From positions 59,096-123,095 of the IMG/VR virus record IMGVR_UViG_3300029305_005988: a stretch of DNA of 64,000 bases, one strand, 5' to 3'. Position 1 is the stretch's first letter, and each line of letters starts with the position of its first letter. Positions 18,071 through 31,734 of this stretch are shown here, one piece after another. The stretch is from a virus (lineage: Duplodnaviria; Heunggongvirae; Uroviricota; Caudoviricetes). Both the position numbers and the translations under genes were made by a program. The notes below the pieces were generated by a model. It was not told the DNA's origin and searched no databases. It was given only the letters and a program-made list of their open reading frames with translations.

Positions 18071-18835
18071 ATGACTGATGTAATGGCAAGAGTGCAAAAG
18101 CATTATGATAAAGCTGTAGAGCATTATGGTGAAGAGAATATCTTTGGTGTATTCTGTTATGGCTCTTGGAACTATGGCACCAACACTCCTGATTCTGATG
18201 TAGATACTAAATGTATTCTCATTCCTAACCTTTACCATTTAGCGCTTAAGCCTTATGAAGTAAAGCACTTGCATGTAGACGACGAAATTTGTGAGTGTAT
18301 GCCTATTATGCATATGGTTGAGAACTGGAAGAAGCAGAATATTAACTTCCTTGAAATCTTATTTACTCCTTATTGCATTTTGAATGAGGATTACGCCGAT
18401 CTTTGGTGCGGACATCGCGAGGCTGAATGGGAGCATCCTATGACTTTTGGTATGGCAGAAAAAGTTGCGCGCTATGATGTTAAGAAAGCGGTTATGTCTA
18501 TGAGCGGCCAGGCGCTGCATACTATCAGACAAGATCCGACGGATTTAAAGAAGATTATGAACGGTGCGCGCATTATGCGGTCATTGGCGATTTTGACCTC
18601 TAACCCTACAGCATCTTATATTGATGTTATTCGCGCAACTCCCAAGATTGCAGGTATGCGCACAGGAGAGACTAAAATTAAAGATGGTTTCATTGAGGAA
18701 ATGATTTCTTATTTTGATTATATGATGACGCATGCTGATGACTTTGCGCATCTTAGTAGTAACAAACACGAGGTAGACGAATTTCTTAATCAATTTGTAC
18801 TTCAAATGATTAGACAAAGAATTGCTCTTGATTGA
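18071..18835 (+). CDS. Pol-beta-superfamily nucleotidyltransferase (minimal NTase + helical domain)
   Basis: GSWNYGTNTPDSDVD (G[SG]x9-13DxD); sits at head of tRNA array. Confidence 0.5.
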   Translation: MTDVMARVQKHYDKAVEHYGEENIFGVFCYGSWNYGTNTPDSDVDTKCILIPNLYHLALKPYEVKHLHVDDEICECMPIMHMVENWKKQNINFLEILFTPYCILNEDYADLWCGHREAEWEHPMTFGMAEKVARYDVKKAVMSMSGQALHTIRQDPTDLKKIMNGARIMRSLAILTSNPTASYIDVIRATPKIAGMRTGETKIKDGFIEEMISYFDYMMTHADDFAHLSSNKHEVDEFLNQFVLQMIRQRIALD

Positions 18836-18850: not shown

Positions 18851-18925
18851 GCGGGATTAACTCAGCGGAAGAGTAATCGCCTTCTAAGCGATAAGCCAAA
18901 GGTTCGAATCCTTTATCCCGTGCCA
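18851..18925 (+). tRNA. tRNA-Arg(TCT)
   Basis: cloverleaf by eye: stem atcgc/gcgat, loop cttctaa; T-loop ggttcgaatcc; CCA encoded. Confidence 0.6.
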
Positions 18926-19024
18926 GCATCCCAGAACTAGCCTTAATATATTATGCGACTTGCGATAATAAAGTCTGACATAATATATGCTGTCAGAGGC
19001 GGCAGCGGTTCTGGGGTAACATCT

Positions 19025-19100
19025 GCGCCCCTAGCTCAGACGGAAGAGCGGCTGACTCTTAATCAGTAGGTCCAGGGTTCGAATCCCTGGGGGCGCACCA
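19025..19100 (+). tRNA. tRNA-Lys(CTT)
   Basis: loop ctcttaa; T-arm caggg/ttcgaat/ccctg; CCA. Confidence 0.6.
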
Positions 19101-19411
19101 GAGGGAGACCTCAAGGGAATGATTCCGATGCCCGCTTAGCAGCGAAAAAAGGCGTGTTACCGTACTCGATAACAAACGGGGTTTTGCAATGGGTATTTGC
19201 TCCTTATAAACAACCCATAGGGAAGTCGTGGTCCCTAAAGGCTAGCTGGCTAACCACAACTCAAGAAAGTTCCACGCTTGGCTTGGCGGCAAAAGGTGGC
19301 GGTATGTATGGTTACCGAAAAAGTATCATATAGGGCGATAGAGGGACTGAAGCCTCTATAGTGGAGTTCAAGCCTCACTGTACAAGGTTTAGCCAACCAG
19401 CTTGAATTTAT

Positions 19412-19485
19412 ACTGGATTAGTTTAGCGGAAGAACGGGGCGCTACGGACGCTCAGACAAGGGTTCAACTCCTTTATCCAGTGCCA
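19412..19485 (+). tRNA. tRNA-Arg(ACG)
   Basis: loop ctacgga; acceptor actggat/atccagt; CCA. Confidence 0.6.
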
Positions 19486-19558
19486 TACACAACCGACGGA
19501 CAAGGCTTTGGCGCATGAAACAAGGCGGTGGGATGCGAGTGGTTAGGTTGTGTAATTT

Positions 19559-19635
19559 GGGCCACTAGCTCAGTTGGTCAGAGCATCCGGCTCATAACCG
19601 GACGGTCCAAGGTTCAAGTCCTTGGTGGCCCACCA
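19559..19635 (+). tRNA. tRNA-Met(CAT) elongator-type (or Ile-lysidine)
   Basis: loop ctcataa; G1-C72; CCA. Confidence 0.6.
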
Positions 19636-19666
19636 ATACATATAAAAATCAAAAGGAGAGAAGATA

Positions 19667-19816
19667 ATGAAGCCACTTGAAATTAAAGAGTCTAAAGAGC
19701 GAAGAAAAGAGCGGGTCCGTAACTCGGCTTCTCTCCGCACAAGAGTCGTTGAAAGTAAGAAGAAATATAATCGCAAGCGTCAAAAGGCGCGCGACCGTCG
19801 CTCTATGGAGGATTGA
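19667..19816 (+). CDS. very basic 49-aa protein (bS21-like?)
   Basis: MKPLEIKESKERRKERVRNSASLRTRVVESKKKYNRKRQKARDRR; RBS aaaaggagagaagataatg. Confidence 0.35.
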   Translation: MKPLEIKESKERRKERVRNSASLRTRVVESKKKYNRKRQKARDRRSMED

Positions 19817-19817
19817 A

Positions 19818-20096
19818 ATGACTTATTATCACGGCACTTCTGATATATTTGAAATGGGTACTTATATACTACCCGCCTCTTGCACTCATGTTTTACGAGA
19901 AGATTGGCGTAAAAAAGATTTAGATATAGTATTTTCTACTATCTCTTATAAATCAGCTTATATGTATGCCAAGAAGGCAGTTGAAAAGTATGGAGGTGCG
20001 CCAGTGGTATATCGCATTATTCCTCTTGGTAATGTACATTATCGTGGCGGTATAGAATACGGTTCTAATATTGCAGTTATAGTTGCTAAAGAGTAA
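19818..20096 (+). CDS. Arr-like mono-ADP-ribosyltransferase mini-protein (92 aa)
   Basis: MTYYHGTSDIFEMGTY... and VVYRIIPLG resemble Arr YHGT / YIVEPTG motifs (from memory). Confidence 0.35.
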   Translation: MTYYHGTSDIFEMGTYILPASCTHVLREDWRKKDLDIVFSTISYKSAYMYAKKAVEKYGGAPVVYRIIPLGNVHYRGGIEYGSNIAVIVAKE

Positions 20097-20171
20097 AAAT
20101 TTTTTCATTTTTAATTAAATCATTAAAAGTAATTTTAATATAAAAATACCCCACTCAGAAAGGAGAAGCTT

Positions 20172-20417
20172 ATGGGATACAAAAGAAGTCAAGAACAAAG
20201 AAGGCGAGATGAGCGCACCTATTCTGAAACTAAAACTTGGTATGGTAAAGGGGTATGGTATGATAAAGAAAAAGGCATTTATCGTAGATATTCATTACCT
20301 GAGCGTACGCGTTTTGTAAAGCGTAAATGTAACCGCGCAGTTCGTCGATATAAAGGAGATTTAACTACTAAAGGAGCGTATCGTAAAGTTTCTGAGTATT
20401 GGTGGGAAATCTGGTAA
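20172..20417 (+). CDS. basic Arg/Lys-rich protein (81 aa)
   Basis: ORF+RBS aaaggagaagcttatg. Confidence 0.4.
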   Translation: MGYKRSQEQRRRDERTYSETKTWYGKGVWYDKEKGIYRRYSLPERTRFVKRKCNRAVRRYKGDLTTKGAYRKVSEYWWEIW

Positions 20418-20425
20418 TTCATATA

Positions 20426-20498
20426 GGGAATTAGTTTAACAGTAGAATGACTGTCTCCAAAACAGTAGGCTGCGGGGCAGCACCGTAATTCCCTGCCA
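20426..20498 (+). ncRNA. degenerate tRNA-like (Trp CCA-type anticodon arm, no canonical T-arm)
   Basis: acceptor gggaatt/aattccc 7/7, stem actgt/acagt, loop ctccaaa; T-region replaced by ctgcggggcag. Confidence 0.3.
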
Positions 20499-20603
20499 GT
20501 TCCTTTAAAGATCTTCATAGTGACCATCGGCGCATTTATTGATTTTATAAAAAAATTATGATATAATAAATTGTAAAATGAAAGAGGGAAAGAGAGGGAA
20601 AAA

Positions 20604-20822
20604 ATGAAAGCACAAATTCGACTTGATACCATGTCTGATGTACATCGCTTTGTTAATATTGCAACAAAGCAAAAGGGTAGTGTCTATATCACTGATGACA
20701 ATGGTTTAAAGGTTAGCGCCAAATCATTGCTCGGTGCGCTTTATGCTCTTGAGTTTGATGAACTCTGGTGTGAAGCAGAAAATGATATTTATACTGCTAT
20801 TGCTGATTTCGTTATTCTTTAA
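20604..20822 (+). CDS. HPr-like phosphocarrier domain protein (72 aa)
   Basis: DVHRF (His15-like) and NGLKVSAKSLLGALYALEF vs HPr GLHTRPA / NGKSASAKSLFKLQTLG. Confidence 0.55.
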   Translation: MKAQIRLDTMSDVHRFVNIATKQKGSVYITDDNGLKVSAKSLLGALYALEFDELWCEAENDIYTAIADFVIL

Positions 20823-20889
20823 TTGACTTTTCTAAAAAATTATGTTATAATAAAGTACAAAATAAAACAAACCGCAAAGGAGAAAAGTT

Positions 20890-21024
20890 ATGCAAGCTGT
20901 ATGGTATCTTGATGATGAAAATATGAAGCACGTGACTGTCGTGCGTGATCCTGCTGAGTTAATCTTTCTTAAAGAGCGATTTGATTTTGTCGGTACTCTT
21001 GAAGATTTTATGGTAAAAGCATAA
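20890..21024 (+). CDS. hypothetical small protein (44 aa)
   Basis: promoter + RBS aaaggagaaaagttatg. Confidence 0.3.
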   Translation: MQAVWYLDDENMKHVTVVRDPAELIFLKERFDFVGTLEDFMVKA

Positions 21025-21412
21025 AAACTTCATTGATTTTTAATAAAAATTATGATATAATATATGTGTAAGATAAAGGAAACGGGAGTTGTCAGTCCCC
21101 ATAAGCGCCTTTCTTTCGCGCAACTGACTTGGATATGCGGCTGATGGTTCATGAGCCTAAAGCTGTACTTCCTCAGTGAGAGGCGTTTTTTGAGAGTTTT
21201 AGCCGAGATTAAAATTCTACCTTGAGAGTTTTGGAGAAACTCTTCGTTTCAGACAAAAGAGGTATCAATCACTTAGAGTCTTTGTTCGTATAAGTTAAAA
21301 AACATGATAGATTGGTCGCGGCGAGAGTGGCGAGCCTTATGCGGTGTAACGAGCAGAAGCGCAAGAAGATCTTCGCGCCTTGGGAGGGCGGTTATAATAC
21401 TCCCTTTATGGG

Positions 21413-21486
21413 ACCTTAGCTCAGATGGTAGAGCACTTCTTTGATGGCGAAGGTGGCAACGGTTCGAGTCCGTTAAGTTCCTCATA
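21413..21486 (+). tRNA. tRNA-Ile(GAT)-like with imperfect stems (possible pseudo-tRNA)
   Basis: T-arm aacgg/ttcgagt/ccgtt; loop ttgatgg with 31:39 mismatch; acceptor 6/7. Confidence 0.3.
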
Positions 21487-21698
21487 TGTGTAGGTTCACG
21501 ATAACCCTTAATTAGTGAAAATCGTTTAAATGAAGTCGCGCCCGTTGATGGAGTGGCGGACGCGGTTATTAATGAGTATGATGACGCAGACGATTTACCC
21601 TTGGTAGTTGCGTGGAAGGTTGATAAAAGGGCGGTTAGGGAGTAATCCGAGTGAAAACACCACGCTACTTGATGGGCGTTGAATGCATCAAGGTCGAC

Positions 21699-21774
21699 GG
21701 GGGTATAGTTTAAATGGTCAGAACGGGAGCCCTTCAAGCTTCAGATGTGGGTCCGATTCCCGCTATCCCTACCA
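21699..21774 (+). tRNA. tRNA-Glu(TTC)
   Basis: loop ccttcaa; T-arm gtggg/tccgatt/cccgc; CCA. Confidence 0.5.
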
Positions 21775-21861
21775 TAGCGCTTAGGTAAGGCGCTATATAA
21801 ATCTTCTACATTGTCCGTGAGTGACGGGGGTTGGTTTGTCAGCAATATAATCATTTATTAT

Positions 21862-21936
21862 GGAGCTTTAGTTAAGTGGTCAAAACGGGGCGTTCTCAGC
21901 GCTCAGGCGAGGGTTCAATTCCCCCAAGCTTCACCA
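21862..21936 (+). tRNA. tRNA-Glu(CTC)
   Basis: loop ttctcag; acceptor ggagctt/aagcttc; CCA. Confidence 0.5.
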
Positions 21937-22745
21937 TGTTAATGCCGCCCATCAACTAATAAGAGCGCCGATGGGGAAGAGTTAATCTTTTAAGGTTGCG
22001 CCACTCCTGTCCGAGTGGGAGTATAAATAAAAATCTGGCGCACAGTGCCAACTTGGCTGTGCTTAATGGGAAGTTGGGATAAGGTTTCGAGGGTACCGTA
22101 AACCCTCACTTACATAAACTTGTCGACATTCTGCAAAATGTTCGAGTACAAGGGTAGCGTAAATTCCGTCGAGATTTGTTGCAGCATTGCAAAACGGGTC
22201 GGCGCCCAAGGGTAAGTAGCAAGTTGTCTTACCCCATATGATATGGCGGATGGGCATAGTGTTCACCAGAGCCTCATAAGCTCAGGTTGCTCGGGGCAGT
22301 ACCGAGATCCGCATCCACTATACCTAAAATAAAAAAGAGGTTCCTTGGGGAAGAAGCAGGGACCCAGTATCTCCACCTCGAGAATCTGATAAGGGCAGGC
22401 ATCTCAGTTGCGAGACTGAGCGGTAGATAATTACCGTCTTGAGCAGAAAAAATTATACTCTGTTATTGGAGAAAATTGCAATAACTATGCACCTGAATTG
22501 GAATGCCCCATTACAGCTCATGGGTGACTTGGTAGCGCGGAGGCGATGACGCAAAGTCTTCGAAAGAACAAGGGAAAGCTCAACCCAATGCGCCATATGC
22601 CAGAAGGGTCGGCGCCCATCGACGCCTCATACGCGTTGAGCGCTTGGATCGACACCAAGTTTTGGCACCATAAATCCGAGAGGGGCGGCGATGGAAGTTC
22701 TGTCGGCTCGGCTTGTCTGCGCGCACAGGCGCCCCCATTATATAC

Positions 22746-22833
22746 GCAGATCTGGCGAAGAGGTAAACGCACTCGTTATAGGGACGGGTTATATACTCCA
22801 TTATCGTGGGTTCGAATCCCACGATCTGCTCCA
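22746..22833 (+). tRNA. class II tRNA, anticodon TAG (Leu), A33 in loop tataggg
   Basis: acceptor gcagatc/gatctgc, stem ctcgt/acggg, 17-nt variable arm, T-arm gtggg/ttcgaat/cccac, CCA. Confidence 0.45.
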
Positions 22834-22897
22834 CCTCCGAGAGCAAATGTGGGAGGTTAAATGGATATGCAGTTGACTGACTTAAAGTCGCTTTTAT

Positions 22898-22983
22898 CGG
22901 CGGGTGAGCGGAATTGGTAACGCAGCGGACTGTAACTCCGTGGCTCTAGGGCATTGTTGGTTCAAGTCCAACCTCGCCGACCA
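22898..22983 (+). tRNA. tRNA-Tyr(GTA), class II
   Basis: loop ctgtaac; 14-nt variable; T-arm gttgg/ttcaagt/ccaac; CCA. Confidence 0.55.
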
Positions 22984-23075
22984 TTTATCAATCACTATGA
23001 AACTTCTTTGATTTTTACAAAAAATTATGATATAATAAATATGTAAAATGAAAGAGAGGAAAAAAAGAAAAATAT

Positions 23076-23201
23076 GGAGTGGTAGCCCAACAGGCAGAGG
23101 CAATGGACTTGTCTGATGTTCGGTAACCTAGACTGGGTCAGCACCAGTATCAGGCACCAAAAATCCATCAAGTGAGGGTTCGAATCCCTCTCACTCTACC
23201 A
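23076..23201 (+). ncRNA. 126-nt tRNA-like gene with 55-nt insertion in anticodon loop
   Basis: acceptor ggagtgg/tcactct, D-arm gccc..ggc, anticodon stem atgga/tccat enclosing 55 nt, T-arm gaggg/ttcgaat/ccctc, CCA; own upstream promoter. Confidence 0.4.
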
Positions 23202-23356
23202 ATTACATATTAAGGTACGGGAATAAAGCGGCCCCGCTAAGTAAGAGCAGCTTAGAGCGAATGCCTTGATGAAAAGAATATTCTTTATATTAGGTGCCTA
23301 CTCGGGGAATACAGGTGGTAGGATAAATGTGACGACCCAGCCAGCCTAATATTTAT

Positions 23357-23449
23357 AGTGGGGTAAGCCTAATTGGTAAGGCAGTAGGTTGCTAACCTAC
23401 TAGTAATCGAGTAATCGGTGTGTGAGTTCAAGTCTCACCCTCGCTGCCA
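23357..23449 (+). tRNA. tRNA-Ser(GCT), class II
   Basis: stem gtagg/cctac loop ttgctaa; long variable arm; acceptor agtgggg/cctcgct; G73; CCA. Confidence 0.55.
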
Positions 23450-23621
23450 GCTGTCGTTGATACGGCGACATAAAAGGTGAAACTCCCTTTAGGCAGAAGC
23501 GTATTGGTGGACTATCCACAATCGGAGGTAGCGTTCGTGCACAGCGAATAGTGCAATCGTAGCGGTCTTTAAAGGCGCCATATGGGACTGCGTCTGGTAC
23601 GAAAACCCAGACCTTTGAAAT

Positions 23622-23713
23622 GGGAGATTAACCCTAAAGGCAAGGGACTAGTCCTGAAAACTAGTAGTAGCGAGTCAAATCGTGTGTGGTTTCGAGATCC
23701 ACATCTCCCTCCA
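23622..23713 (+). tRNA. tRNA-Ser(TGA), class II
   Basis: acceptor gggagat/atctccc; stem ctagt/actag loop cctgaaa; long variable arm; CCA. Confidence 0.5.
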
Positions 23714-23864
23714 CTTACCCGTGAGTAGTGGGGCTCTCGGCATCGCCAGTAAATAGCTACTCAAACTCCCAACGGTAGAGCAAATGACCAGAACTAGGAG
23801 TTAAAATAAACGAGACTAAGGATGTGCGGCTGACAACCTACTGTCATTACATATGCGAGTTTAG

Positions 23865-23939
23865 TTCAGAAGTAGAATACCGCTCTGATAAAGCGGGGGT
23901 GCTTGGGGCAGTACCAAGAATTCGCACCAAAACTCAAGA
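23865..23939 (+). tRNA. tRNA-Ile(GAT) with non-canonical T-loop ggcagta
   Basis: stem ccgct/agcgg loop ctgataa; acceptor gcgagtt/aattcgc; CCA. Confidence 0.55.
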
Positions 23940-24324
23940 GATAAAAGGAAGATGTAGGTTCGAGCCCTGCCCGCGCCGTCTTTAATTTGCGCGGTAGTGT
24001 GAAGTGGTTTAACACATCCGAAGCGCACCTTTTGAGTTTGTTGTAAGGAGTCATGACCTTACCGTGACATTGGTTAGCTACCGTCGATTAGCCATGAGCG
24101 CGAAAATGCTCTAAAAAAGTAGCAAACGGTAACTCATTACCGTGAATATTTGATAACCTTTAGGAACTGTAGGTTTAACTCAGTGCTAAAGACGAAGCGC
24201 AGTGCACGGCGCAAATGAGAGGATTGTCAGTTGTCTTATCTAACTACCTAAACTGAATAGTCAAGGGATACGAAGATCCCTCCCCGTAGCTGTTCGCGGG
24301 AGTGAGATTGTGAGCAGCATCTAT

Positions 24325-24402
24325 GGGGGACTAGCTCCAATTGGCTAGAGCACGACACCTGCAATGTCGGGGTTATGGGTTCGAATCCCATGTCCTCCAC
24401 CA
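24325..24402 (+). tRNA. tRNA-Ala(TGC)
   Basis: G3:U70 present; loop cctgcaa; T-arm atggg/ttcgaat/cccat; CCA. Confidence 0.65.
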
Positions 24403-24500
24403 GCTGGCTCAAGATAGATAGGCGTAATTAACCTATTGACAAGAACAGCTCCTTCTTCTTGAGTCTAAAATTTTGAGGAGCTATAAAGGAGTTTATAAAA

Positions 24501-25265
24501 ATGACATCAGGAATTTATATGTATTAGAACAAGGTTAATGGACAGTGCTATATTGGATAGGCAATAGACCTTGCACGGAGAAAAAAAGACCATAAAACAA
24601 GAGCCTTTAATGAATTTGAGGGTAATAATGAGTATAATTCAGTAATACATTAGGCTTTTAGAAAATATGGTTATGATAATTTTGAATATTCAGTATTAGA
24701 AGAATGTGAAATATCTTTGCTTAATGAAAGAGAACGATATTGGATTGCTTATTATAATTCTTATAAAGTTGGATATAATTGTGATGAAGGTGGCAATACT
24801 GCAAGACATTTTTGTAAATTTAATGCAGATATATTATAGGCATTAAAAAATGATTTACAAGAAACAAAAGATACCTATGAAATATTAGCAGCTCGATATG
24901 GAGTGTCCATTGGATATGTAAGCGATATTAATAATGGAAAAATATGGCATCAAGATGGTGTAATTTATCCATTACGGAAAAAGCAGTCTAAAAGTATTCA
25001 ATATTGTTCTTTATGTGGAGTTGAGATTTCTGGAGAAGGACAGACGGGCTTATGTGTTGCCTGTGCAAATGCAAGATATAGAAAAGTAGAACGTCCAACT
25101 CGAGAAGAACTAAAATATCTTATTAGAAATTTTACTTTTGTAGAAATTGGTAAGCAATTTGGAGTTGCAGATAACACTATTAAAAAATGGTGTAAAGCAA
25201 TGAATTTACCTTCTCGTAAAAAAGATATTAATTTATATTCAAACATAGAGTGGGAAGCTCTTTAA
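24501..25265 (+). CDS. GIY-YIG homing endonuclease with C-terminal HTH/Zn module; 4 in-frame TAG (24525, 24558, 24651, 24837)
   Basis: MTSGIYMY*NKVNGQCYIG*AIDLARR...; paralog 45405 has Q where this has TAG (FHQAIRKYG vs IH*AFRKYG); ORF 24903-25265 is its tail. Confidence 0.7.
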
Positions 25266-25280
25266 CTTTCCACCAAGATA

Positions 25281-25358
25281 TGGAGTCGTTAGTTCAGTAG
25301 GTTAGAACGCCAGATTGTGAGTCTGGATGTCGTCAGTTCGAGTCTGACACCTCTCCCC
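25281..25358 (+). tRNA. tRNA-His(GTG) (extra 5' G; 2 acceptor mismatches)
   Basis: stem ccaga/tctgg loop ttgtgag; T-arm gtcag/ttcgagt/ctgac; CCA. Confidence 0.45.
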
Positions 25359-25529
25359 ATAAAAACTGAGTCCATCTGATGCGGCACCAGCGCTCAGGAA
25401 AGTAGGATGGATAAAAAGCATTAGCCCAGACATCTGCGGGAAAGCGCTCCTGACAAGTACCGACCGAAAGCGAAATGCGGGATAAGTGAACAGCACCTTA
25501 TCATTTACATAATAACAAAGGAGCAATAT

Positions 25530-25703
25530 ATGAAAAAATCAATCGGTCTTGAATGCCCTCATTGTGGTTATCAGTGGACAACTAAATATTGGATTTGGAT
25601 TTTGAAGGCGCCGATGCACTGGTTTAAATTTCGTGATTGGCGTGATTACAGATATACTAAGTGCCCGAGCTGTGGAAAACGAGGCTGGGTTAAATATTCT
25701 TAA
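25530..25703 (+). CDS. zinc-ribbon small protein (57 aa)
   Basis: CPHCG...CPSCG; RBS aaaggagcaatatatg. Confidence 0.4.
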   Translation: MKKSIGLECPHCGYQWTTKYWIWILKAPMHWFKFRDWRDYRYTKCPSCGKRGWVKYS

Positions 25704-25705
25704 TT

Positions 25706-25770
25706 GATTTTTAATAAAAATTTTGTTATAATATATATACAAAATGAGAAATGAAAAAAGAAAACATTTG
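25706..25770 (+). promoter_or_regulatory. AT-rich-class promoter driving tRNA-Asp leader
   Basis: ttgatttttaataaaaattttgttataat. Confidence 0.5.
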
Positions 25771-25895
25771 GTGACTGGATTTAGCGGTAAGACCTGTTCA
25801 GATAAACGCGTATCAACAGGCGCAAGTTAATCAGTCTTAAATCAGGAAACTTTCCTTTGGGCGCGAATTGCCCATCTGAGCCAGTCCTTTGCTAC

Positions 25896-25970
25896 GGCGG
25901 TATAGTTCAGCGGTGGAGCGCCTGACTGTCTATCAGGATGTCGAGGGTTCGAATCCCTCTACCGTCGCCA
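25896..25970 (+). tRNA. tRNA-Asp(GTC)
   Basis: stem cctga/tcagg loop ctgtcta; T-arm gaggg/ttcgaat/ccctc; CCA. Confidence 0.6.
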
Positions 25971-26199
25971 AAGTCTAATTTGTTAGTTATCCGAGACTTT
26001 AAACCTAAACTGACAAAAGGCGATTATCAACGCCGCACGCGAGCCTTTGAAAGATAAGTAGTGAAAAGCTGGAGTACTACAGTCTGATACGAATCGTATG
26101 TCATCGTGAGCCAACGGCATACTGCGGGACCTTGCCCGTATAAAACCAAGGAGGGTCAGAAGTGGAGTGAGCTACCGAGTATAAACGCTCACGATTTAT

Positions 26200-26275
26200 G
26201 CTGTGATAATTCAATTGGGAGAAGAGCCGGCGTCAAGCAGGCTAGTTGTGGGTTCGAGTCCCACTCACAGGTCCA
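26200..26275 (+). tRNA. tRNA with UCA-centred anticodon loop (cgTCAag, G33) - opal-reading/Sec-like candidate or mis-parse
   Basis: acceptor 6/7 (G1-G72 mismatch); T-arm gtggg/ttcgagt/cccac; CCA; anticodon stem gccgg/caggc with one mismatch. Confidence 0.3.
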
Positions 26276-27009
26276 GAGGTGCCAATGCCTAATCATTGGT
26301 CAGGAGTCTAACCTGTGCGGTATTACGCAGAGCGACCGGGGTCCCGCATCCGTGAGCAACGGGAAAAATAATAGGTGCCACGAAGCCAATAACTAGGGAG
26401 TGAATATTACTTGATGTAATTAGCCCATTCGATAAAATCCTAGGTACGAATGAGATACAGCTCTGTGAGGCGATAAAATGCAGTGGTAAATGGAGTTTGA
26501 TGAACAGCCTATTCCACCCCGCTCTAAGGGTGAGTACTCGAGGTCTGGAGCAACGAGTAAATAAATAAATAAAGTCCCCAGAGTCGTTTTGCGGTGTCGG
26601 AGAAAACCGCCATAGAGCGCAAGTGTTGTGGGTCGAGCGGGCTTAGAGCAATGGCCCAATTAGGTAAGGACAAGGTTCATGGAAATGCGCGGAAGTGACA
26701 AAAACCCTCAGTTTTCCTTGTTTTCACAAAACAAGGTGGGCTCAAGTTGGGCATCTACTGTGACCTCTGGGAGGAGTCCCCTTCGATCCTCCACCTATTC
26801 AACAGAGTGAGTAGAGAGCGAAGTCGCAAACGCTATATAAAAAGACGAGTAATAGTGTTGAGTCTTAAGACACAGGCAGCGGTGGGCCAAATATCCGCTG
26901 GAGTTTCGCCTCCAAGATGAAGTGCGAGATTTATGATGTAAGTCGTGATTAGCTCTGAAGTGGACGCTTATTTAAGCAGCTTCGGTCTACGGCGCGGGTC
27001 CAGCTTTCC

Positions 27010-27085
27010 GCATCCAAGAGCTGGAATTTCGGGGTGTAGCCTAGTTGGTTAGGCGCTTGCTTTGGGAGCAAGATCACGCGGGTTC
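27010..27085 (+). tRNA. tRNA-Pro(TGG)
   Basis: stem cttgc/gcaag loop tttggga; D-stem gcct/aggc; CCA. Confidence 0.6.
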
Positions 27086-27260
27086 GAGTCCTGTCACTCC
27101 GTCCAATATTTACACCCTAAAGATTCTTAGGGCAACAATCGGCGCCAATCCATCTCCCAGCAGTTGGATAATACGCGCAAGAACTTTATGGAGTTCGGAG
27201 AGTCTTTCTCTTGCTGGGTATAAAAACTCTCCTCCTCTTTTTCCATTAAGAGATACATAT

Positions 27261-27347
27261 GCGTTTGTGGTGTAATTGGCAGCCACGCAGCGTTGAGGTC
27301 GCTGTGCTCGAAAGAGCGTGTAGGTTCGACTCCTATCAGACGCACCA
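27261..27347 (+). tRNA. tRNA-Leu(GAG), class II
   Basis: stem cagcg/cgctg loop ttgaggt; variable arm gctcgaaagagc; A73; CCA. Confidence 0.6.
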
Positions 27348-27389
27348 TTGTTTGCAGCGTAGCAAAGAAAAACCTGCTGCAGAGAGCTA

Positions 27390-27440
27390 TCATCTAACCA
27401 CCATTAGATGATAGTAGCCTCCAAGTTTTTAATTGATTTT
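27390..27440 (+). terminator. long hairpin terminator (gctatcatctaa..ttagatgatagc + gttttt)
   Basis: seen. Confidence 0.55.
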
Positions 27441-27582
27441 ATTAAAAATTTATGATATAATAATATTGTAATAATGAGAAAGGAAATAAAAATAAAAAGA
27501 AATGAGAAATGTAAAGCGAAAATTTAGAGCCTTGGAGAATTAATCCATCTAAGGTATTTAAAACATAGATGGGTTTTAATAT

Positions 27583-27656
27583 GAGCCCGTCATATAATGG
27601 TAGTATTTGCGACTTTTAATCGCACCGTCGGAGTTCGACTCTCCGCGGGCTCACCA
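27583..27656 (+). tRNA. tRNA-Lys(TTT)
   Basis: acceptor gagcccg/cgggctc; loop cttttaa; T-arm cggag/ttcgact/ctccg; CCA; own promoter. Confidence 0.65.
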
Positions 27657-27812
27657 TAAAGAATTTAATTGATTTCTTAAAAAATTTATGATATAATAAA
27701 TATGTAAGATAAAGGCGATGCAATATAAGTAGCGAGAAACAAAGACACTCGCCGCTTCCATCAACAAATTCTCGATTCAAAATTGCTCGAAAGAGGTCGC
27801 TAATCGTAATAT

Positions 27813-27888
27813 TGGGTCTTCGCCTAAACGGTTAGGGCACAGGACTTTGACTCCTGCAGTCTAGGTTCGAATCCTAGAGACCCAGCCA
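27813..27888 (+). tRNA. tRNA-Gln(TTG)
   Basis: U1:A72, G73, tc-gcc D-arm (Gln-like); stem cagga/tcctg loop ctttgac; CCA. Confidence 0.6.
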
Positions 27889-27923
27889 AATATTGGAGGT
27901 TAGCCTAGTGGTCAGGCAGTCGG

Positions 27924-28392
27924 CTGTTTTAACTGACTTTAATCTTTAATGAAAAAAGATAGTGAACAGTAAGCAAATTGGCAATATTACCGAAGTATCT
28001 GTTATGCTTGAGTTTTTAAAATTAGGATATAATATTTTAACTCCTTATGGAGATTGCGAACGATATGATTTTGTTGCAGATATTAATCATAAATTTTATA
28101 AAATTCAAGTAAAAACAGCAAAAAAAGATAATGGTAAAATCGAATTTAATACAGCATCCACTCATTATGTAGATGGAAAATGTATTCATGACTCTTATAC
28201 AAAAGATGAAATTGATTACATTGCAACTTATTTTAATAATAAGTGTTATTTAATTCCAATTGAGGAATGTGGAAAGCGCTCTGCTTCAATTCGTTTTGAA
28301 GCTCCTAAAAATGGACAAACCAGAGGAGTTCGAATGGCAGAAGATTATGAGTTGGAGGAAGTAATTAAAAGATTAAACTGATGTTAAAGCAA
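27924..28392 (+). mobile_element. intervening element in tRNA anticodon loop (group I intron-like or novel) encoding PD-(D/E)XK-like nuclease
   Basis: only ~40 nt 5' and ~11 nt 3' of non-ORF sequence, too little for a canonical group I core. Confidence 0.4.
27962..28381 (+). CDS. putative PD-(D/E)XK-fold homing endonuclease (139 aa), paralog of 30291-30905
   Basis: GDCERYDFVADIN...KIQVK motif block conserved with paralog (GEDCRYDMIVDIN...RVQVK); lies inside split tRNA. Confidence 0.45.
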   Translation: MNSKQIGNITEVSVMLEFLKLGYNILTPYGDCERYDFVADINHKFYKIQVKTAKKDNGKIEFNTASTHYVDGKCIHDSYTKDEIDYIATYFNNKCYLIPIEECGKRSASIRFEAPKNGQTRGVRMAEDYELEEVIKRLN

Positions 28393-28653
28393 CCGACCTA
28401 CGGGAGTTCAATCCTCTCACTTCCAGCCAGTCGATTATCGACAAAAACCGTTATCATGAATTTGGCAGTTAAACTACCACCGACTCTAACAATTAGCACC
28501 CAGTATGCGGTCAAGTATTGAATATGAGGTATGTGGCTTAGTGGGAAACGGTATATCAAAGACGCAAAGTAAACTGCCGCTTGGATGATTTTTTCATGGT
28601 TTTCCTCCCTTCAACGGGTTTGGGCATTACCGTTAAAACAATGCCTTTAGAAT

Positions 28654-28730
28654 GTCAGTCTAGCCCAATTGGCAGAGGCACTAGTCTTAGGAACTAGTTA
28701 GTGTGGGTTCGACTCCCTCGATTGACACCA
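28654..28730 (+). tRNA. class I (short variable arm) tRNA with anticodon TAG (Leu codon CUA) - atypical
   Basis: stem ctagt/actag loop cttagga; acceptor gtcagtc/gattgac; T-arm ~gtggg/ttcgact/ccctc; CCA. Confidence 0.45.
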
Positions 28731-29419
28731 TGGATGCTACTTCCAAGCCGTAAGGTGAATGTAGCGGTTTTTACGATGAGGTTTTGACGGTTTTTCCAAG
28801 AGTCGTAATCCCCATAATATAATTATTAAAATAAATCGGCAACTCTTGGGTGTTGATGTACAAGTAGCACCATCAACCTCTCCTATGCGTTCCGTATATA
28901 AAGACTCGGAAGAGGTAACAGAGCGTAGGTGACTATACGGTATCAAGAGGCGGAATCCGTACGCGCGACGAGGCATGATGCGAAAAATCAAAAAGGTGGC
29001 AGCCTGCTCGAGAATATATGGTATTATAAATTTAATCGGTATCAATGTGGAAAGACACTGCCAAAGGTTGACAACCATTATGAGTTGTTGAAACAGAGAT
29101 ACTCGATATAAGTAAATAATCTTGATTACATTAAGTAGTTTGAGGCGATTACTACTGTGAAATGCAGAGTAGGCTTGAGAGAGCGCTCACGAACAAGAAT
29201 TGAAATCAAATGCTGAGAAGATCGTGGATTTCGTCCATCCGAAGCACAGAGTAGGATGCGATTAGCGACGAGGATGTGGTGAGGTTCTGGTAGACCAACC
29301 AATGGTGTCTAAGTCAGATGTAGATTGAAAGATGTAACGGTTATTTACTCGAATTGTGGAAGGTAGCAAATACCCGATGCCCAAAAGAAGAAGATATGCG
29401 GTTAGCTGACCTAAAGCTT

Positions 29420-29460
29420 CACCTCTTTATTGACAAAATAAAAAATTTTTGTTATAATAA
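29420..29460 (+). promoter_or_regulatory. promoter of GIY-YIG HEG (ttgacaaaataaaaaatttttgttataat)
   Basis: seen. Confidence 0.5.
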
Positions 29461-29539
29461 ATAAGTAATCGAAAGTTCATTGATAATTGCATAAGAAAAT
29501 ATATAAGACATCTATAAAAGAAGGAGTTGAATTTATTAT

Positions 29540-30176
29540 GGGTTTTATTTATAAAGTTACAAATAAAGTCAATGGTAAAGTTTATATTGGAAAAACTTTA
29601 GACTCTTCTATAGAGGAGCGCTTTAAAGAACATATTAAAGAAGCTAAAGTAAAACAATATAATCGACCTTTTCATCTGGCTTTAAATAAGTATGGAGCAG
29701 AAAATTTCATAATTGAAGAAATTGAGCAAATTCCTGCAAATGAATTAAGCAAAAGAGAAATATATTGGATTTCTTTTTATCATTCTTATATTCACGATCC
29801 AGTTTCAAACGGATATAATGCCACTAAAGGTGGCGAAGGATCGCTAGAATATGACTATGATAAAGTTATTGTAGAGTATCATAAAACACAAAGTATTACT
29901 CAAACAGCCAATAATTTAAAATGTTCTATATCTACAGTACAGAGAGCTATTCGAGAATATAATGTTCCCGTATATAAACAGCGCGCCTGTGGAGTTAAAA
30001 TTATTGGCTATAATGATATGGAAGAATTAACTTTTGATTCTATCCGACAAGCTGCTGAATTTTTATCAAAACGATTAAATAAAGATATGCAGACAATACG
30101 AAAGCGAATTACTTCTATTATTAATCATAAACCTAATCAAAAAGGGTATGGTTATTACTGGAAAGAACAAGAATAA
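29540..30176 (+). CDS. GIY-YIG homing endonuclease (no in-frame TAG)
   Basis: MGFIYKVTNKVNGKVYIGKT...ERFKEH...YWISFYHS...GYNATKGG; ORF track 29487-30176. Confidence 0.7.
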
Positions 30177-30228
30177 CTATATTTTCTTATGCAATTAAGT
30201 TGAACTTTTTAATATGCACCTGTCGCAT

Positions 30229-30919
30229 AGTGGCCGATTGCACTCGCCTTGTTCGTAAATTTAAGACTTCCTATAAAGGAGGTTGATATAATGAATGAGA
30301 CAAAGATTAAAGGTTTAACCACTGAGCTTCAATGTCAATTATTCTTTACTCAATTGGGTTATAATGTTAGTATCCCGTTAGGAGAAGATTGTAGATATGA
30401 TATGATAGTAGATATTAATGGCATACTCTTGCGAGTTCAAGTAAAACACGCAACTGTTGCAGAAAATGGTATTACTATTTCTACTCGTTCTACTCAATCT
30501 AACACTTCAGGATCAAAAAGTTTAACCTATAATAAGGAACAAATTGATTATTTTGCAACTTTTTATAATAACCAGTGTTATTTAATTAAAGTTGAAGAAT
30601 GTTCAACTCAAAAAACTTTAGCTTTTACTAAAATTCAACAAATGCAGAACTTCATTGATGATTTTTTGGCTGAAAAAGAAATTCAAAGAATCTTAAATGG
30701 GGAAGATGCTATAGAAGATACTGTAATAGCAAATGTATATCAATATGATTTGCGTGGCAACTTAATAGGAGCCTATTCAAGTGCCGTTGCAGCAGCTGAA
30801 AGTTTAGGAGATCGCTCTAAAAATTCTCATATTACCAAATGCCTTAATGGGCATAGGCAAACAGCATATGGGTATAAATGGAGCAGGACACTATTGAAGT
30901 CTTAAACATTATGATCAAA
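30229..30919 (+). mobile_element. intervening element in tRNA anticodon loop encoding nuclease ORF
   Basis: no G at predicted 3' splice position, so a group I assignment is doubtful. Confidence 0.35.
30291..30905 (+). CDS. putative PD-(D/E)XK-fold homing endonuclease with C-terminal DNA-binding tail (GYKW), paralog of 27962-28381
   Basis: conserved block with paralog; RBS ataaaggaggttgatataatg. Confidence 0.45.
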   Translation: MNETKIKGLTTELQCQLFFTQLGYNVSIPLGEDCRYDMIVDINGILLRVQVKHATVAENGITISTRSTQSNTSGSKSLTYNKEQIDYFATFYNNQCYLIKVEECSTQKTLAFTKIQQMQNFIDDFLAEKEIQRILNGEDAIEDTVIANVYQYDLRGNLIGAYSSAVAAAESLGDRSKNSHITKCLNGHRQTAYGYKWSRTLLKS

Positions 30920-31505
30920 GCGAGAGACCTTGTCCGCGTTGGTTCGAATCCAACTAGGTGCTCCATGGCGTCAAGAAGAAAACCTGCGCGTGGTGACGCT
31001 GCACGCTCTTACCCAGTGGCTAATTTCTTCATGCATCACCTCCTTTCGATGCAAAAAGGCGGCGCACGCCTGTAAGTCCCCAAGCTATCTTGGCTAAAGT
31101 GTTGCGGGGAGCATACCCTGACAAACCTCTGTGGCTGGGTTATAAGCTCGGAAAATAGACACTTCTCCATTTAGTGAGAAACCGTTAGTGTCACTAAGCG
31201 AGGGTGGCGGGAAAAACCTTCGCTTCTTCCCATTTAAACTTGATATACGACAGGTGAAGTCGATAAAACTGCCTTGGTAGGGTAGCGCCCTACGGAAGAG
31301 ACGATAGAGCGCAAGAGGGCGTCCCAAGATTATCAAGTACAATTTATATTAGCTTAAGAGAGCCTTTGTCCCAAACACAGCGCTCCGTCAAAAGAAACCG
31401 TTTAGCACGGACTCGCAAGAGATAGTACTCGGTAGGGTTGGGAAAAGCGTGGATACAATTAGCTACTCCACGGGAAATTTCAATTGACAATCTTAAGCGC
31501 CTTCT

Positions 31506-31580
31506 GCAGGTGTCGTATAATGGCTATTACCTCTGCCTTCCAAGCAGATGATGGGAGTTCGATTCTCCCTACTTGCTCCA
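31506..31580 (+). tRNA. tRNA-Gly(TCC)
   Basis: stem tctgc/gcaga loop cttccaa; T-arm gggag/ttcgatt/ctccc; CCA. Confidence 0.6.
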
Positions 31581-31657
31581 GCCCTTTGGGCGACATTTTT
31601 CTACCCTTCCTTTCTGCTTTACCGCGCGCTGTTCGTTGGCGCGCGGTAATTGAACAT
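31581..31657 (+). promoter_or_regulatory. perfect 10-bp hairpin taccgcgcgc..gcgcgcggta between tRNAs (processing site?)
   Basis: seen. Confidence 0.35.
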
Positions 31658-31734
31658 GGTGATGTACCCGAGTGGACTAAGGGCGCGCTCTGCAAAAGCG
31701 TTGTGCGTTGATTCGAATTCAACCATCACCTCCA
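31658..31734 (+). tRNA. tRNA-Cys(GCA)
   Basis: acceptor ggtgatg/catcacc; stem gcgct/agcgt loop ctgcaaa; CCA. Confidence 0.6.

Follow-up and report, generated by a model that had tools for sequence, protein, structure and literature searches.

Does a tRNA gene with a leucine anticodon still encode a leucine tRNA when it lacks the long variable arm, and does a second gene with the same anticodon and an aberrant anticodon loop encode a decoder at all? Both questions are raised by a tRNA array in the window analyzed here, a stretch of 64,000 nt that is part of a phage genome of about 135 kb and belongs to a clade that is common in metagenomes. The features discussed below are collected in Table 1. 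In the reading that we favor, to which we assign a probability of roughly 0.75, the short-arm tRNA is a genuine CUA-reading tRNA-Leu, while the odd long tRNA is most likely no routine leucine decoder.

Table 1. Features of the window that are referred to in the text, with the basis of their assignment.
Feature	Position	Strand	Basis or remark
RlaP-like nucleotidyltransferase gene	18071-18835		Directly before the tRNA array
tRNA array holding the odd long and the short-arm tRNA	18851..31734	+	22 tRNAs by ARAGORN, 3 more by Rfam
Odd long tRNA with a Leu-like body	22746..22833	+	ARAGORN, Rfam, orthologues, covariation, loop diversity
Interrupted tRNA with a short-Leu body	23076..23198	+	Rfam tRNA, 43.7 bits; 52 unaligned loop positions
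Canonical class II tRNA-Leu(GAG)	27261..27347	+	ARAGORN; 4-bp variable stem GCUC/GAGC, A73
Short-arm (class I) tRNA-Leu(UAG)	28654..28730	+	ARAGORN, Rfam, family covariation, phage matches
RNA ligase	37636-38814	+	Pfam PF09414/PF21189
P-loop kinase, AAA_33 family	38916-39383	+	PF13671
Calcineurin-like phosphoesterase	39376-39942	+	PF12850/PF00149
Amber suppressor tRNA (anticodon CUA)	42221-42319		

The short-arm gene is predicted by ARAGORN as a tRNA-Leu(tag) of 77 nt and scores 53.3 bits against the Rfam model RF00005, which has a gathering score of 29. In the Infernal alignment the acceptor stem is GUCAGUC/GAUUGAC, the anticodon stem is CUAGU/ACUAG (with an additional A26-U44 pair), and the loop CUUAGGA (C32 U33 U34 A35 G36 G37 A38) presents the anticodon UAG. 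The variable loop comprises 4-5 nt (UUAGU), and the long variable arm of the class II architecture is absent. The preliminary description of this DNA had called the tRNA class I from the same stem, loop and short variable region, and ARAGORN and Infernal both agree with it. The D stem has 3 bp and the D loop, which is large (11 nt), contains G18G19 with an A two positions past G19, along with an A15:U48 Levitt pair; the T loop is UUCGA. The D arm, UAGCCCAAUUGGCAGAGGC, has the same length (19 nt) and the same G18G19 placement as the D arm of E. coli leuT, UGGCGGAAUUGGUAGACGC. The 3′ end reads GAUUGAC-A-CCA, with A73 and an encoded CCA. Two mismatches occur, a U-U within the T stem and a C-A at positions 13-22. 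The class II tRNA-Leu(GAG) of the same array is a normal bacterial-type leucine tRNA and serves as internal comparison.

The long arm is a structural hallmark of tRNA-Leu, said in a review to be present everywhere but in animal mitochondria, yet it is dispensable for E. coli LeuRS, whose determinants are A73, A15:U48 and G18G19 (PMC9976931); these rules come from E. coli, and those of the phage host may differ. A tRNA without the arm is atypical, but as the E. coli enzyme ignores the arm (PMC9976931), leucylation would still be possible. Arm-less variants of E. coli tRNA-Leu (Asahara 1998; Larkin 2002; Tocchini-Valentini 2000, as cited in PMC9976931) are charged by LeuRS if A73 and the tertiary contacts between D and T arms are kept. 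The short-arm tRNA likewise keeps A73 and the D and T features; the variants were made in the laboratory, whereas the phage genes occur in nature and are widespread. Animal mitochondrial tRNA-Leu also combines a short variable loop with identity via A73 and core nucleotides (PMC9976931). It belongs to an unrelated lineage, is served by a mitochondrial synthetase and often has reduced D and T loops, in contrast to the phage tRNA, which retains the full bacterial-type core (G18G19 and the UUCGA T loop).

The gene is a member of a large phage family with a wide range of hosts. A blastn search with it matched 287 GenBank phage records, and the matches that were listed and inspected are annotated as tRNA-Leu. 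These include Kolesnikvirus phi63_307, with a Leu(aag) of 78 nt and a Leu(taa) of 77 nt, and Gordonia phage Phendrix, of which gene 143 is a 75-nt tRNA-Leu reading CUA that is 93% identical to the tRNA of the window over 59 nt. Erwinia, Mycobacterium, Streptomyces and relatives of E. coli also have cultured phages with members of the family, and the standard code is used in the annotation of these phages. The annotated short tRNA-Leu genes (Phendrix, phi63_307, Streptomyces and Mycobacterium phages) share with the one in the window a cloverleaf of 74-78 nt, a D arm of the form GCCCAA..GGCAGAGGC, A73 and a variable loop of 4-5 nt with U48 as its last nucleotide, and the anticodon arm of their UAG members, GCACUAGUCUUAGGAACUAGU, is nearly identical to it. 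They differ in that the tRNA analyzed here is encoded in a gut-type, uncultured phage clade and combines an acceptor stem of its own (GUCAGUC) with the U-U mismatch in the T stem. Syntenic orthologues were found in seven loci of related phages (L008, L009, L011, L056, L060, L069 and L072). The anticodon-arm pattern further matches five IMG/VR arrays and six arrays from metagenome-assembled genomes (MAGs), and exact copies of the anticodon arm were found in just six contigs among 185,579 species genomes, each of them a dense tRNA array. Short tRNA-Leu is thus nearly absent from cellular genomes and recurrent in phage arrays; blastn against E. coli genomes gave no match. The rule that bacterial tRNA-Leu is always class II, as the preliminary description put it, holds for cells (PMC9976931) and is broken by this phage family. 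No description of a short-arm (class I) tRNA-Leu in phages was retrieved by full-text literature searches.

The family is structurally conserved. All four helices are preserved (97.6% paired) in sixteen distinct homologues, the sources of which are the clade of the window, IMG/VR phages, Gordonia phage Phendrix and MAG arrays. Both partners have changed in 16 of 21 pairs, and none of 500 shuffles matched this pairing. Because the helices are kept via compensatory changes, the tRNA and its homologues do not represent chance folds. Six anticodons were found on the short-arm body (UAG, UAA, CAA, CAG, GAG and AAG), which are leucine anticodons without exception among the sequences collected. The interrupted tRNA of the same array also has such a body, with a GCCCAACAGGCAGAGGC D arm, a CAAGU variable loop and A73; about 50 nt are inserted into its anticodon loop after CUU, and their removal could restore the loop CUUAAAA with the anticodon UAA. 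When 63 distinct tRNAs with leucine anticodons were collected from phage-type arrays, 37 had a short variable region (≤6 nt), six an intermediate one (7-11 nt) and 20 a long one, in a sample that was seeded with the short form and is therefore biased toward it. The identity elements are largely retained: A73 was present in 17 of 18 short tRNA-Leu (first set), and A15:U48 in 32 of 37 short tRNA-Leu, in 18/18 long and intermediate tRNA-Leu with A73 and in 131 of 385 other phage tRNAs. A73 is common, and A15:U48 occurs in a third of the other phage tRNAs. In locus L011, the positional orthologue (20171-20253) has the same anticodon arm and a mini hairpin, CC-GAAA-GG, left in its variable region. 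Descent from class II tRNA-Leu is suggested by these intermediates and identity elements, and overall similarity is not its basis. The short-arm lineage would thus have lost the long variable arm while retaining leucine identity.

What the genome expects at CUA can be read from its own genes, which says nothing on the tRNA that delivers the amino acid. GyrA, GyrB and LigA of the window contain 22 CTA codons, 21 of which align with the E. coli proteins. Nine of these stand at an E. coli leucine and 86% at L, I, V, M or F, compared with 33-57% leucine and 72-86% hydrophobic residues for the other five leucine codons. Across 120 phage relatives of GyrA, the CTA sites are 81% leucine (other leucine codons, 74-83%). 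As the CTA codons in the gyrase and ligase genes are leucine-like, CUA is not reassigned.

Judging from its sequence, we read the short-arm gene as a true tRNA-Leu(UAG), presumably charged with leucine and used in decoding. It would read CUA and probably other CUN codons by U34 wobble, and would supply leucine at CUN codons during infection, which may be most useful in case of depletion or cleavage of the host tRNAs. For this single gene the outcome is mostly deflationary, as it adds one more copy to a type of phage tRNA-Leu already labeled correctly by annotation pipelines. The family as a whole is a large-scale exception to the rule that only animal mitochondria have a tRNA-Leu without the long arm, and the phage genes form a natural test set for the use of the long arm by LeuRS, processing enzymes and tRNA-targeting defense.

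The odd long tRNA is a different case. ARAGORN predicts a Leu(tag) tRNA of 88 nt, which scores 44.1 bits against the Rfam tRNA model. Its anticodon stem is CUCGU/ACGGG and its loop UAUAGGG (U32 A33 U34 A35 G36 G37 G38); the A33 in place of U33 that had been noted before was confirmed by the Infernal alignment. Shifted anticodon registers (AGG, AUA or similar) leave no paired stem, and Infernal and ARAGORN concur on the register. Two further features had escaped the preliminary description, namely a discriminator U73 (followed by CCA) and a 17-nt AU-rich variable region, UUAUAUACUCCAUUAUC, that is predicted to be essentially unpaired. Eleven of the 12 loci from related phages contain the gene, which always lies between an aberrant 72-nt tRNA-Met and a tRNA-Tyr(GUA). 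Among GenBank phages, blastn returned no match to it, and a pattern scan of metagenomes yielded 28 matches, comprising 26 chance hits, one unrelated tRNA-like sequence and one true orthologue (L040).

The acceptor, D, anticodon and T helices are maintained in twelve distinct orthologues (97.5% paired). Both partners have changed in 13 of 23 pairs, and no shuffle out of 500 did as well. As in the short family, the compensatory changes by which the helices are kept argue that these are not chance folds. The 7-bp acceptor stem and the 5-bp T stem are each 100% paired in the 12 sequences. U73, C72 and the motif AUACUCCA in the variable region are invariant; U73 is found in 12/12 orthologues, as opposed to A73 in all other long tRNA-Leu of the clade. 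The variable region measures 15-20 nt and allows a single stem, the invariant AUA/UAU, which shows no covariation. The anticodon loop, on the other hand, exists in seven versions of three lengths (7, 8 and 10 nt) with the anticodons UAG, CAG, GUU and UGG. Position 33 is A in nine members, G in L040 and U only in L068 and L069; the 10-nt loop of L009 has U33 only under an assumed bulged 7-nt fold. UAG or CAG is combined with G37 in nine of the 12 members. The orthologous neighbors (Tyr, Ser, Leu(UAA) and the short Leu(UAG)) keep a constant anticodon and at most two loop variants per set. A short or intermediate tRNA-Leu(UAG) is also encoded in 7 of the 12 clade loci, and the other loci end about 10 kb past the nucleotidyltransferase gene, ahead of the expected position of this tRNA.

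Because of U73, the purine at position 33, the invariant AUACUCCA and the non-conserved anticodon loop, the odd tRNA is most likely no routine leucine decoder. The earlier doubt about its identity and charging was therefore justified, and the case is stronger than had been stated, given U73, A33 and the non-conserved loop. It probably does not act as a regular leucine decoder, and we favor a tRNA mimic or special-purpose tRNA that would be under selection for its L-shape, U73-CCA end and variable loop. It would represent a clade-specific, structurally conserved RNA built on a Leu-like class II body. A drifting anticodon loop next to a frozen variable-loop motif is unlike the evolution of a decoder, and the gene may represent a phage tRNA mimic of a new kind, or an off-rule tRNA. 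The complement of the motif, TGGAGTAT, has four further copies in the window where 1.5 are expected; 2 of 100 shuffles did equally well, and it is unconvincing as a pairing target. That the AUACUCCA loop resembles an anti-Shine-Dalgarno sequence is only an idea.

The loss of the long arm may itself have been adaptive. We regard it as a tentative possibility that short tRNA-Leu escape nucleases or toxins choosing class II tRNAs by their arm, and that purine-33 and C33 loops escape anticodon nucleases. The ligase, kinase and phosphoesterase genes of the window are adjacent (37636..39942, + strand) and form an RNA-repair cassette. In T4 Pnkp/Rnl1 and in bacterial Pnkp, these domains jointly repair cleaved tRNA, and by analogy we infer a tRNA-repair role for the cassette. 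U33 is missing in 30 of the 226 distinct tRNAs of the clade, 18 of which have C33 (Glu, Ala, Lys, Gly, Val, Ser and Met). Taken together, the repair cassette, the C33 tRNAs and the amber-suppressor tRNA point to pressure on tRNAs. An adaptive loss would also agree with the recurrence of short tRNA-Leu in phages and its near absence from cells, where the six contigs are all tRNA arrays. For the toxin MenT3, the long variable arm is the determinant for serine tRNAs; against an adaptive loss, we know of no defense system that selects bacterial tRNA-Leu via its long arm. The strong preference of MenT3 for serine (class II) tRNAs has been documented (PMC11541572).

Precedents exist for phage tRNAs that evade tRNA-targeting defenses by changes in the anticodon loop (PMC10264068, PMC11464382, PMC11555353). 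The window resembles the phages with anticodon-nuclease-escaping tRNAs (van den Berg et al., 2023, PMC10264068) in having a tRNA array, altered anticodon-loop positions and a repair cassette, and the same likeness applies to T5 tRNAs against PARIS and retron effectors (PMC11464382, PMC11555353). The searched text of PMC10264068 mentions neither position 33 nor the variable arm. Arm loss may also be merely tolerated, because LeuRS ignores the arm (PMC9976931), and class II tRNA-Leu are encoded in the same arrays, including the Leu(GAG) of the window. A wider version, in which both tRNAs are arms-race products (the arm having been lost under class II-targeting immunity and the odd tRNA being a tRNA-Leu mimic that titrates an effector or is charged off-rule), we consider doubtful, and any role of either tRNA in evading host defense would be putative.

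The odd tRNA could instead still be a leucine tRNA for CUA or CUG that is charged by LeuRS despite U73, with A33 as an escape mutation from anticodon nucleases. The Leu-type D arm UGGCGRAAUAGGUAAACGC in most members fits this proposal, as do the prevalence of UAG or CAG with G37, a canonical U33 loop (AUUAGGA) in two members and the frequency of non-U33 loops in the clade. tRNAs with a substituted U33 are still able to decode, and the odd tRNA may yet decode CUN codons, poorly or in a nuclease-resistant form. We nevertheless judge a retained leucine function unlikely: U73 is invariant while the clade's other long tRNA-Leu all have A73, the key determinant of LeuRS (PMC9976931), members with GUU or UGG anticodons and with loops of 8 and 10 nt occur, a normal tRNA-Leu(UAG) is already available in the window and in at least six related phage loci, and the invariant motif in the variable loop is left unexplained.

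A missense role of the odd tRNA at leucine codons, for which it would have to be charged with an amino acid other than leucine, is improbable. Two systems that the tRNA resembles in part would be parallels. Like allo-tRNAs (Mukai et al., 2017, PMC5389517), it has a long variable region and belongs to a set with very different anticodons, leucine ones included, which vary among homologues; in both, identity appears to be uncoupled from the anticodon, and missense or nonsense suppressors or regulatory RNAs have been suggested. Allo-tRNAs have acceptor/T branches of 8/4 or 9/3 and a Ser-type long arm (PMC5389517), whereas the odd family has a 7/5 arrangement, U73, C2-G71, a weak A-U variable stem and an invariant CUCCA loop. 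Candida tRNA-Ser(CAG) shares with the odd tRNA a class II body bearing a leucine anticodon, a purine 33 (G33 in Candida), G37 and a discriminator other than A73. It has a Ser body and its serylation is known, in contrast to the Leu-like D arm and U73 of the phage tRNA; its discriminator is G73 (PMC2246281). The class II shape with a non-leucine discriminator, and the occurrence of U73 in some serine tRNAs of the clade, would be in line with mischarging. Against it, C2-G71, found in 11 of the 12 members, is an anti-determinant toward SerRS in E. coli tRNA-Leu (PMC9976931), the variable stem has at best 3-4 A-U pairs with no covariation, and the 7/5 arrangement is neither 8/4 nor 9/3. The CTA sites of the phage are moreover leucine-like, and missense insertion would therefore harm its own proteins.

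An isotype switch of the short-arm tRNA, which the preliminary description had raised together with an unclear identity, would require another class I tRNA to have mutated to UAG, with CUA being reassigned or deliberately mistranslated. We consider this highly improbable. In an anticodon-independent, leave-one-out nearest-neighbor (kNN) classification among phage tRNAs (control accuracy 61-76%), 21/21 long and intermediate tRNA-Leu were assigned to leucine, compared with only 6-9 of the 37 short ones, which sets the short body apart from class II tRNA-Leu as a switch would. The remaining short tRNA-Leu were scattered over many isotypes and pointed to no consistent alternative, and the short family therefore represents a separate cluster. 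A nearest-neighbor assignment against 28 E. coli K-12 tRNAs, by D arm and then by full length, had a control accuracy of about 30% and was discarded. In its D arm the short-arm tRNA is about as near to generic class I D arms as to Leu D arms, the closest single counterpart being a His tRNA of L011, and bodies are re-used within the clade, as in L062, where a Leu-type class II body carries a His anticodon and C73. The suspicion of a switch is countered by the Leu-annotated phage family, which includes cultured phages with the standard code, by A73 and A15:U48 at Leu-like frequency among the LeuRS determinants, and by the leucine-like CTA codons of GyrA, GyrB and LigA; in addition, the short body bears six leucine anticodons, and intermediates with a residual variable hairpin exist.

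Decay to pseudogenes, in an array shuffled by homing endonucleases, or faulty prediction is barely credible as an account of either gene or of both. In its favor are the PD-(D/E)XK and GIY-YIG endonuclease genes scattered through the array, aberrant members such as the 72-nt tRNA-Met (with a degenerate D arm) and the interrupted tRNA, and the two mismatches of the short-arm tRNA. Set against these are strong compensatory covariation in both families, Rfam scores well above the gathering threshold, a CCA encoded in both genes and the conservation of both in phages that share only 50-70% identity in the flanking protein.

The preliminary description had also remarked that the UAG anticodon is the reverse of amber. 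This has no bearing on either tRNA, as UAG reads the sense codon CUA, and the amber-suppressor anticodon CUA is absent from both. Genome-wide recoding of a stop codon was considered and rejected, as stop-to-stop open reading frame coverage, compared between the standard code and TAG, TGA or TAA read-through, gave no signal. The replication genes (32-64 kb) are intact under the standard code. A few genes do contain in-frame TAG codons.

The short tRNA (Leu anticodon UAG) is of a kind that already appears under its correct name in hundreds of phage records. The Rfam tRNA model (53.3 bits) and an Infernal alignment confirmed its description as a class I tRNA, with stem CUAGU/ACUAG, loop CUUAGGA, a 5-nt variable loop, A73 and CCA. 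A blastn search of GenBank phages returned 287 records, from phages of Mycobacterium, Streptomyces, Vibrio, Erwinia, Escherichia, Shigella, Salmonella, Gordonia, Enterococcus and others. The matched gene is annotated as tRNA-Leu in most records listed and unannotated in some, with Kolesnikvirus phi63_307 carrying tRNA-Leu(aag) (78 nt) and tRNA-Leu(taa) (77 nt), and Gordonia phage Phendrix a 75-nt tRNA-Leu that reads CUA. With its anticodon positions unspecified, the anticodon-arm pattern (GGCACTAGTCTNNNGAACTAGT) was matched in five IMG/VR contigs, each time within a tRNA array; these arrays contain many tRNAs of 73-77 nt with the Leu anticodons UAG, UAA, CAA, CAG and GAG that can be aligned to the short tRNA. 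Among 185,579 bacterial and archaeal species, each represented by one genome, the exact 22-nt arm occurs in only six contigs, all of them MAG contigs with a dense array of 18-28 tRNAs. This type of tRNA thus belongs in essence to phage arrays, the six MAG arrays being presumably of phage origin. The cloverleaf is kept in 16 distinct UAG members (97.6% paired, 16 of 21 pairs changed on both sides); none of 500 shuffles was as good and slid controls reached 33-42% pairing. A sample of Leu-anticodon tRNAs from phage-type arrays, biased because the short form was its seed, comprises 63 distinct members; the variable loop has at most 6 nt in 37 of them, 7-11 nt in six and is long in 20.

Features of the window and long tRNAs of related phages
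Feature	Position	Strand	Characteristics
tRNA-Pro(AGG)	6930-6999	+	70 nt, A34 anticodon (ARAGORN); below Rfam gathering threshold
Coherent ORF with in-frame TAG	9600-10319	-	
Nucleotidyltransferase	18071-18835	+	254 aa, conserved; weak matches to NTP_transf_2 and RlaP
tRNA array	18.8-31.8 kb		ARAGORN and Rfam
C33 tRNA-Glu(UUC)	21699-21774		Loop CCUUCAA
tRNA-Met(CAU)	22599-22670	+	72 nt; D arm much reduced (~1-2 bp, 5-nt loop); below Rfam gathering threshold
Odd tRNA	22746-22833	+	Class II-like, anticodon UAG
tRNA with insert	23076-23198	+	Rfam; short-Leu body, ~50-nt insert in anticodon loop after CUU
C33 tRNA-Ala(UGC)	24325-24402		Loop CCUGCAA
Coherent ORF with in-frame TAG	24498-25265	+	
tRNA, anticodon UCA	26200-26275	+	76 nt (ARAGORN), G33, U73; below Rfam gathering threshold
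Short tRNA	28654-28730		Class I, anticodon UAG
Replication-type genes	32-64 kb		GyrA, GyrB, NAD-dependent DNA ligase, DnaB-like helicase, RecJ, sigma-70 factor, RNase H, RNA ligase, vault-shoulder protein
Vault-shoulder protein	32561-35050	+	829 aa; PF11978, E = 2e-24
RNA ligase, AAA_33 P-loop kinase, calcineurin-like phosphoesterase (adjacent)	37636-39942	+	Domain matches
Class II tRNA	42221-42319	+	99 nt; 6-bp variable stem, U1-A72, G73
Long tRNAs with class I amino acid anticodons	L062:16668-16754; L008:18873-18957; L009:18427-18511; L008:17521-17607; L070:8244-8327; L056:19019-19103		80-87 nt; His, Thr, Lys, Trp, Asn

On balance of evidence, the short tRNA is probably a true tRNA-Leu(UAG) (probability about 0.8). 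The E. coli LeuRS requires A73, A15-U48, G18G19, A20a and the D/T tertiary contacts, while the anticodon and long arm are dispensable and arm-less constructs are still charged (PMC9976931). The short tRNA carries A73 and A15/U48, and its D arm, equally near generic class I and Leu D arms, equals that of E. coli tRNA-Leu in length and G18G19 position. Of the 37 short Leu tRNAs, 32 have the A15:U48 pair, as do all 18 long and intermediate Leu tRNAs with A73, compared to only 131 of the 385 remaining phage tRNAs. At the corresponding position in the related locus L011, the orthologue has the identical anticodon arm, a GGCG-type D arm and a retained small variable hairpin (CC-GAAA-GG); other arrays include Leu(CAA) tRNAs whose variable region has 10 nt. 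CTA accounts for 60 of the 711 Leu codons in the window's 29 clear ORFs. In GyrA, GyrB and LigA, 21 of 22 CTA codons can be aligned to the E. coli proteins, nine at Leu and 86% at L/I/V/M/F, versus 33-57% Leu and 72-86% hydrophobic residues for the other five Leu codons; across 120 phage GyrA relatives, CTA sites hold Leu in 81% (74-83% for other Leu codons). CTA sites thus behave like other Leu codons and CUA is not reassigned. The isotype switch proposed for this tRNA in the preliminary description is at odds with these sites and with the LeuRS elements present, and we consider it wrong, or at best very improbable.

Overall similarity gave no clear isotype for the short tRNA. Nearest-neighbour assignment against E. 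coli tRNAs had a control accuracy of only 30%. A leave-one-out, anticodon-independent kNN with phage and E. coli tRNAs (control accuracy 61-76%) assigned the 21 long and intermediate Leu tRNAs to Leu without exception, but only 6-9 of the 37 short ones when the other short ones were left out of the reference, the remainder scattering over many isotypes with no consistent non-Leu assignment. The short family is therefore its own cluster, whose nesting in class II Leu is not demonstrable by overall similarity. A full-text literature search found no description of the class I nature of phage short tRNA-Leu genes, which is contrary to the general statement of a 2023 identity review (PMC9976931). 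The scale of the short-arm form and the odd U73/A33 family lift the finding above a routine tRNA.

At its simplest, loss of the arm would be tolerated because LeuRS does not read it. It is also possible that the loss is adaptive and the short form escapes defence effectors recognising class II tRNAs. Consistent with this, published phage tRNAs evade tRNA-targeting defences via loop changes (PMC10264068, PMC11464382, PMC11555353). Adjoining the array are genes for a metallophosphoesterase, a P-loop kinase and an RNA ligase with PHA02142 OB and RNA_ligase domains. In its domains, this cassette matches systems for tRNA/RNA repair, and such a ligase/kinase/phosphatase set repairs tRNA in the case of T4 Pnkp/Rnl1 and bacterial Pnkp. 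In addition, U33 is missing in 30 of 226 distinct clade tRNAs, with C33 in 18 (Glu, Ala, Lys, Gly, Val, Ser and Met; the last five in the related loci L056-L070) and A33 or G33 in the other 12. The same pattern is seen in several isotypes and at several loci and therefore appears to be under selection, possibly for resistance to anticodon nucleases.

The odd tRNA (44.1 bits on Rfam tRNA) was as initially described, including A33 (stem CUCGU/ACGGG, loop UAUAGGG); its discriminator, U instead of A, and its 17-nt variable region, predicted to be unpaired, had gone unnoticed. Twelve distinct orthologues were collected via homologues of the nucleotidyltransferase gene heading the array, plus one of them from a metagenome scan. 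The odd tRNA is found in 11 of 12 clade loci, always between the aberrant tRNA-Met, itself conserved in related loci (e.g., L009:13687-13758), and tRNA-Tyr(GUA). Pairing in the acceptor, D, anticodon and T helices is 97-100%, and 13 of the pairs show compensatory changes, which argues against decay of the gene. All members share G1-C72, U73 and the variable-region octamer AUACUCCA, as well as AUA/UAU, the sole possible variable stem. The anticodon loop is not conserved: UAUAGGG occurs in five members, AUUAGGA in two, and UACAGGG, UGUAGGG, CAGUUAA, UAUAAGGG (8 nt) and GAUUGGAACG (10 nt) in one each, with nominal anticodons UAG, CAG, GUU and UGG. At the same loci, the sets of Tyr, Ser, Leu(UAA) and short Leu(UAG) orthologues keep their anticodon with at most two loop variants, and every other long Leu tRNA of the clade has A73.

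Judged by the E. coli rules, the odd tRNA would match no class II synthetase: Leu needs A73, Tyr needs A73 and a GUA anticodon, and Ser is doubtful because of the C2-G71 anti-determinant and the weak variable stem. With U73 and an anticodon loop that differs among orthologues, the initial doubt about identity and charging stands for this tRNA. We tentatively regard it as a mimic or special-purpose tRNA in which selection would act on L-shape, U73-CCA end and variable loop; a search for a base-pairing target of this loop found none. A nuclease-resistant decoder, still charged with Leu in spite of U73, is less probable, and a missense tRNA is unlikely; the rest falls to other roles or to decay. 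The closest concepts are Candida tRNA-Ser(CAG) and the allo-tRNAs (PMC5389517), whose hallmark 8/4 or 9/3 branch is missing here. The odd tRNA is a new tRNA variant for which we found no described counterpart.

The 99-nt class II tRNA was given a 4-base anticodon (‘taaa’) by ARAGORN but a normal 7-nt loop (CUCUAAA) by the Infernal alignment, which makes it a predicted amber (UAG) suppressor with anticodon CUA; seryl-tRNA synthetase would suit its long arm and G73. Of the two coherent ORFs with in-frame TAG, one is a GIY-YIG homing-endonuclease gene with four such codons, two of them within the GIY...YIG motif; its homologues in related loci are likewise interrupted by a stop at the YIG* position. 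The second ORF contains one TAG. Residues aligned to these sites are mixed (T/K/Q/R). In-frame TAG and a CUA-anticodon tRNA together suggest partial TAG recoding, which the replication genes do not use. The tRNA with anticodon UCA, which would read stop UGA, could be either a false prediction or a weak suppressor of opal codons.

Removal of the insert from the tRNA at 23076-23198 could leave CUUAAAA as the loop (Leu UAA). Group I introns are far longer than this insert, which could be a mini-intron, another insertion or the mark of a disrupted gene. Among the long tRNAs of related phages, the His tRNA combines a GUG anticodon and C73 with a Leu-type D arm (UGGCGAAAUUGGUAGACGC), which suggests that tRNA bodies may be re-used across isotypes in this clade.

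ARAGORN predicted 24 tRNAs across the window and Rfam three extra (at 20425, 23076 and 23855); those of the array are interleaved with PD-(D/E)XK and GIY-YIG homing-endonuclease genes. The nucleotidyltransferase gene lies directly upstream of the array's first tRNA in every related locus and is common to four IMG/VR viral contigs of 100-135 kb; RlaP denotes an ‘RNA repair pathway DNA polymerase beta family’. GenBank holds no close phage relative, but GyrA has hundreds of metagenomic relatives (67-93% identity) on contigs up to ~137 kb. The window thus comes from a large phage whose clade is common and uncultured. The lone tRNA-Pro lies outside the array. All the genes listed for the 32-64 kb region are intact under the standard code. 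One of them encodes a protein whose match to the major-vault-protein shoulder domain is clear and that to a vault repeat weaker, which is unusual for a phage.
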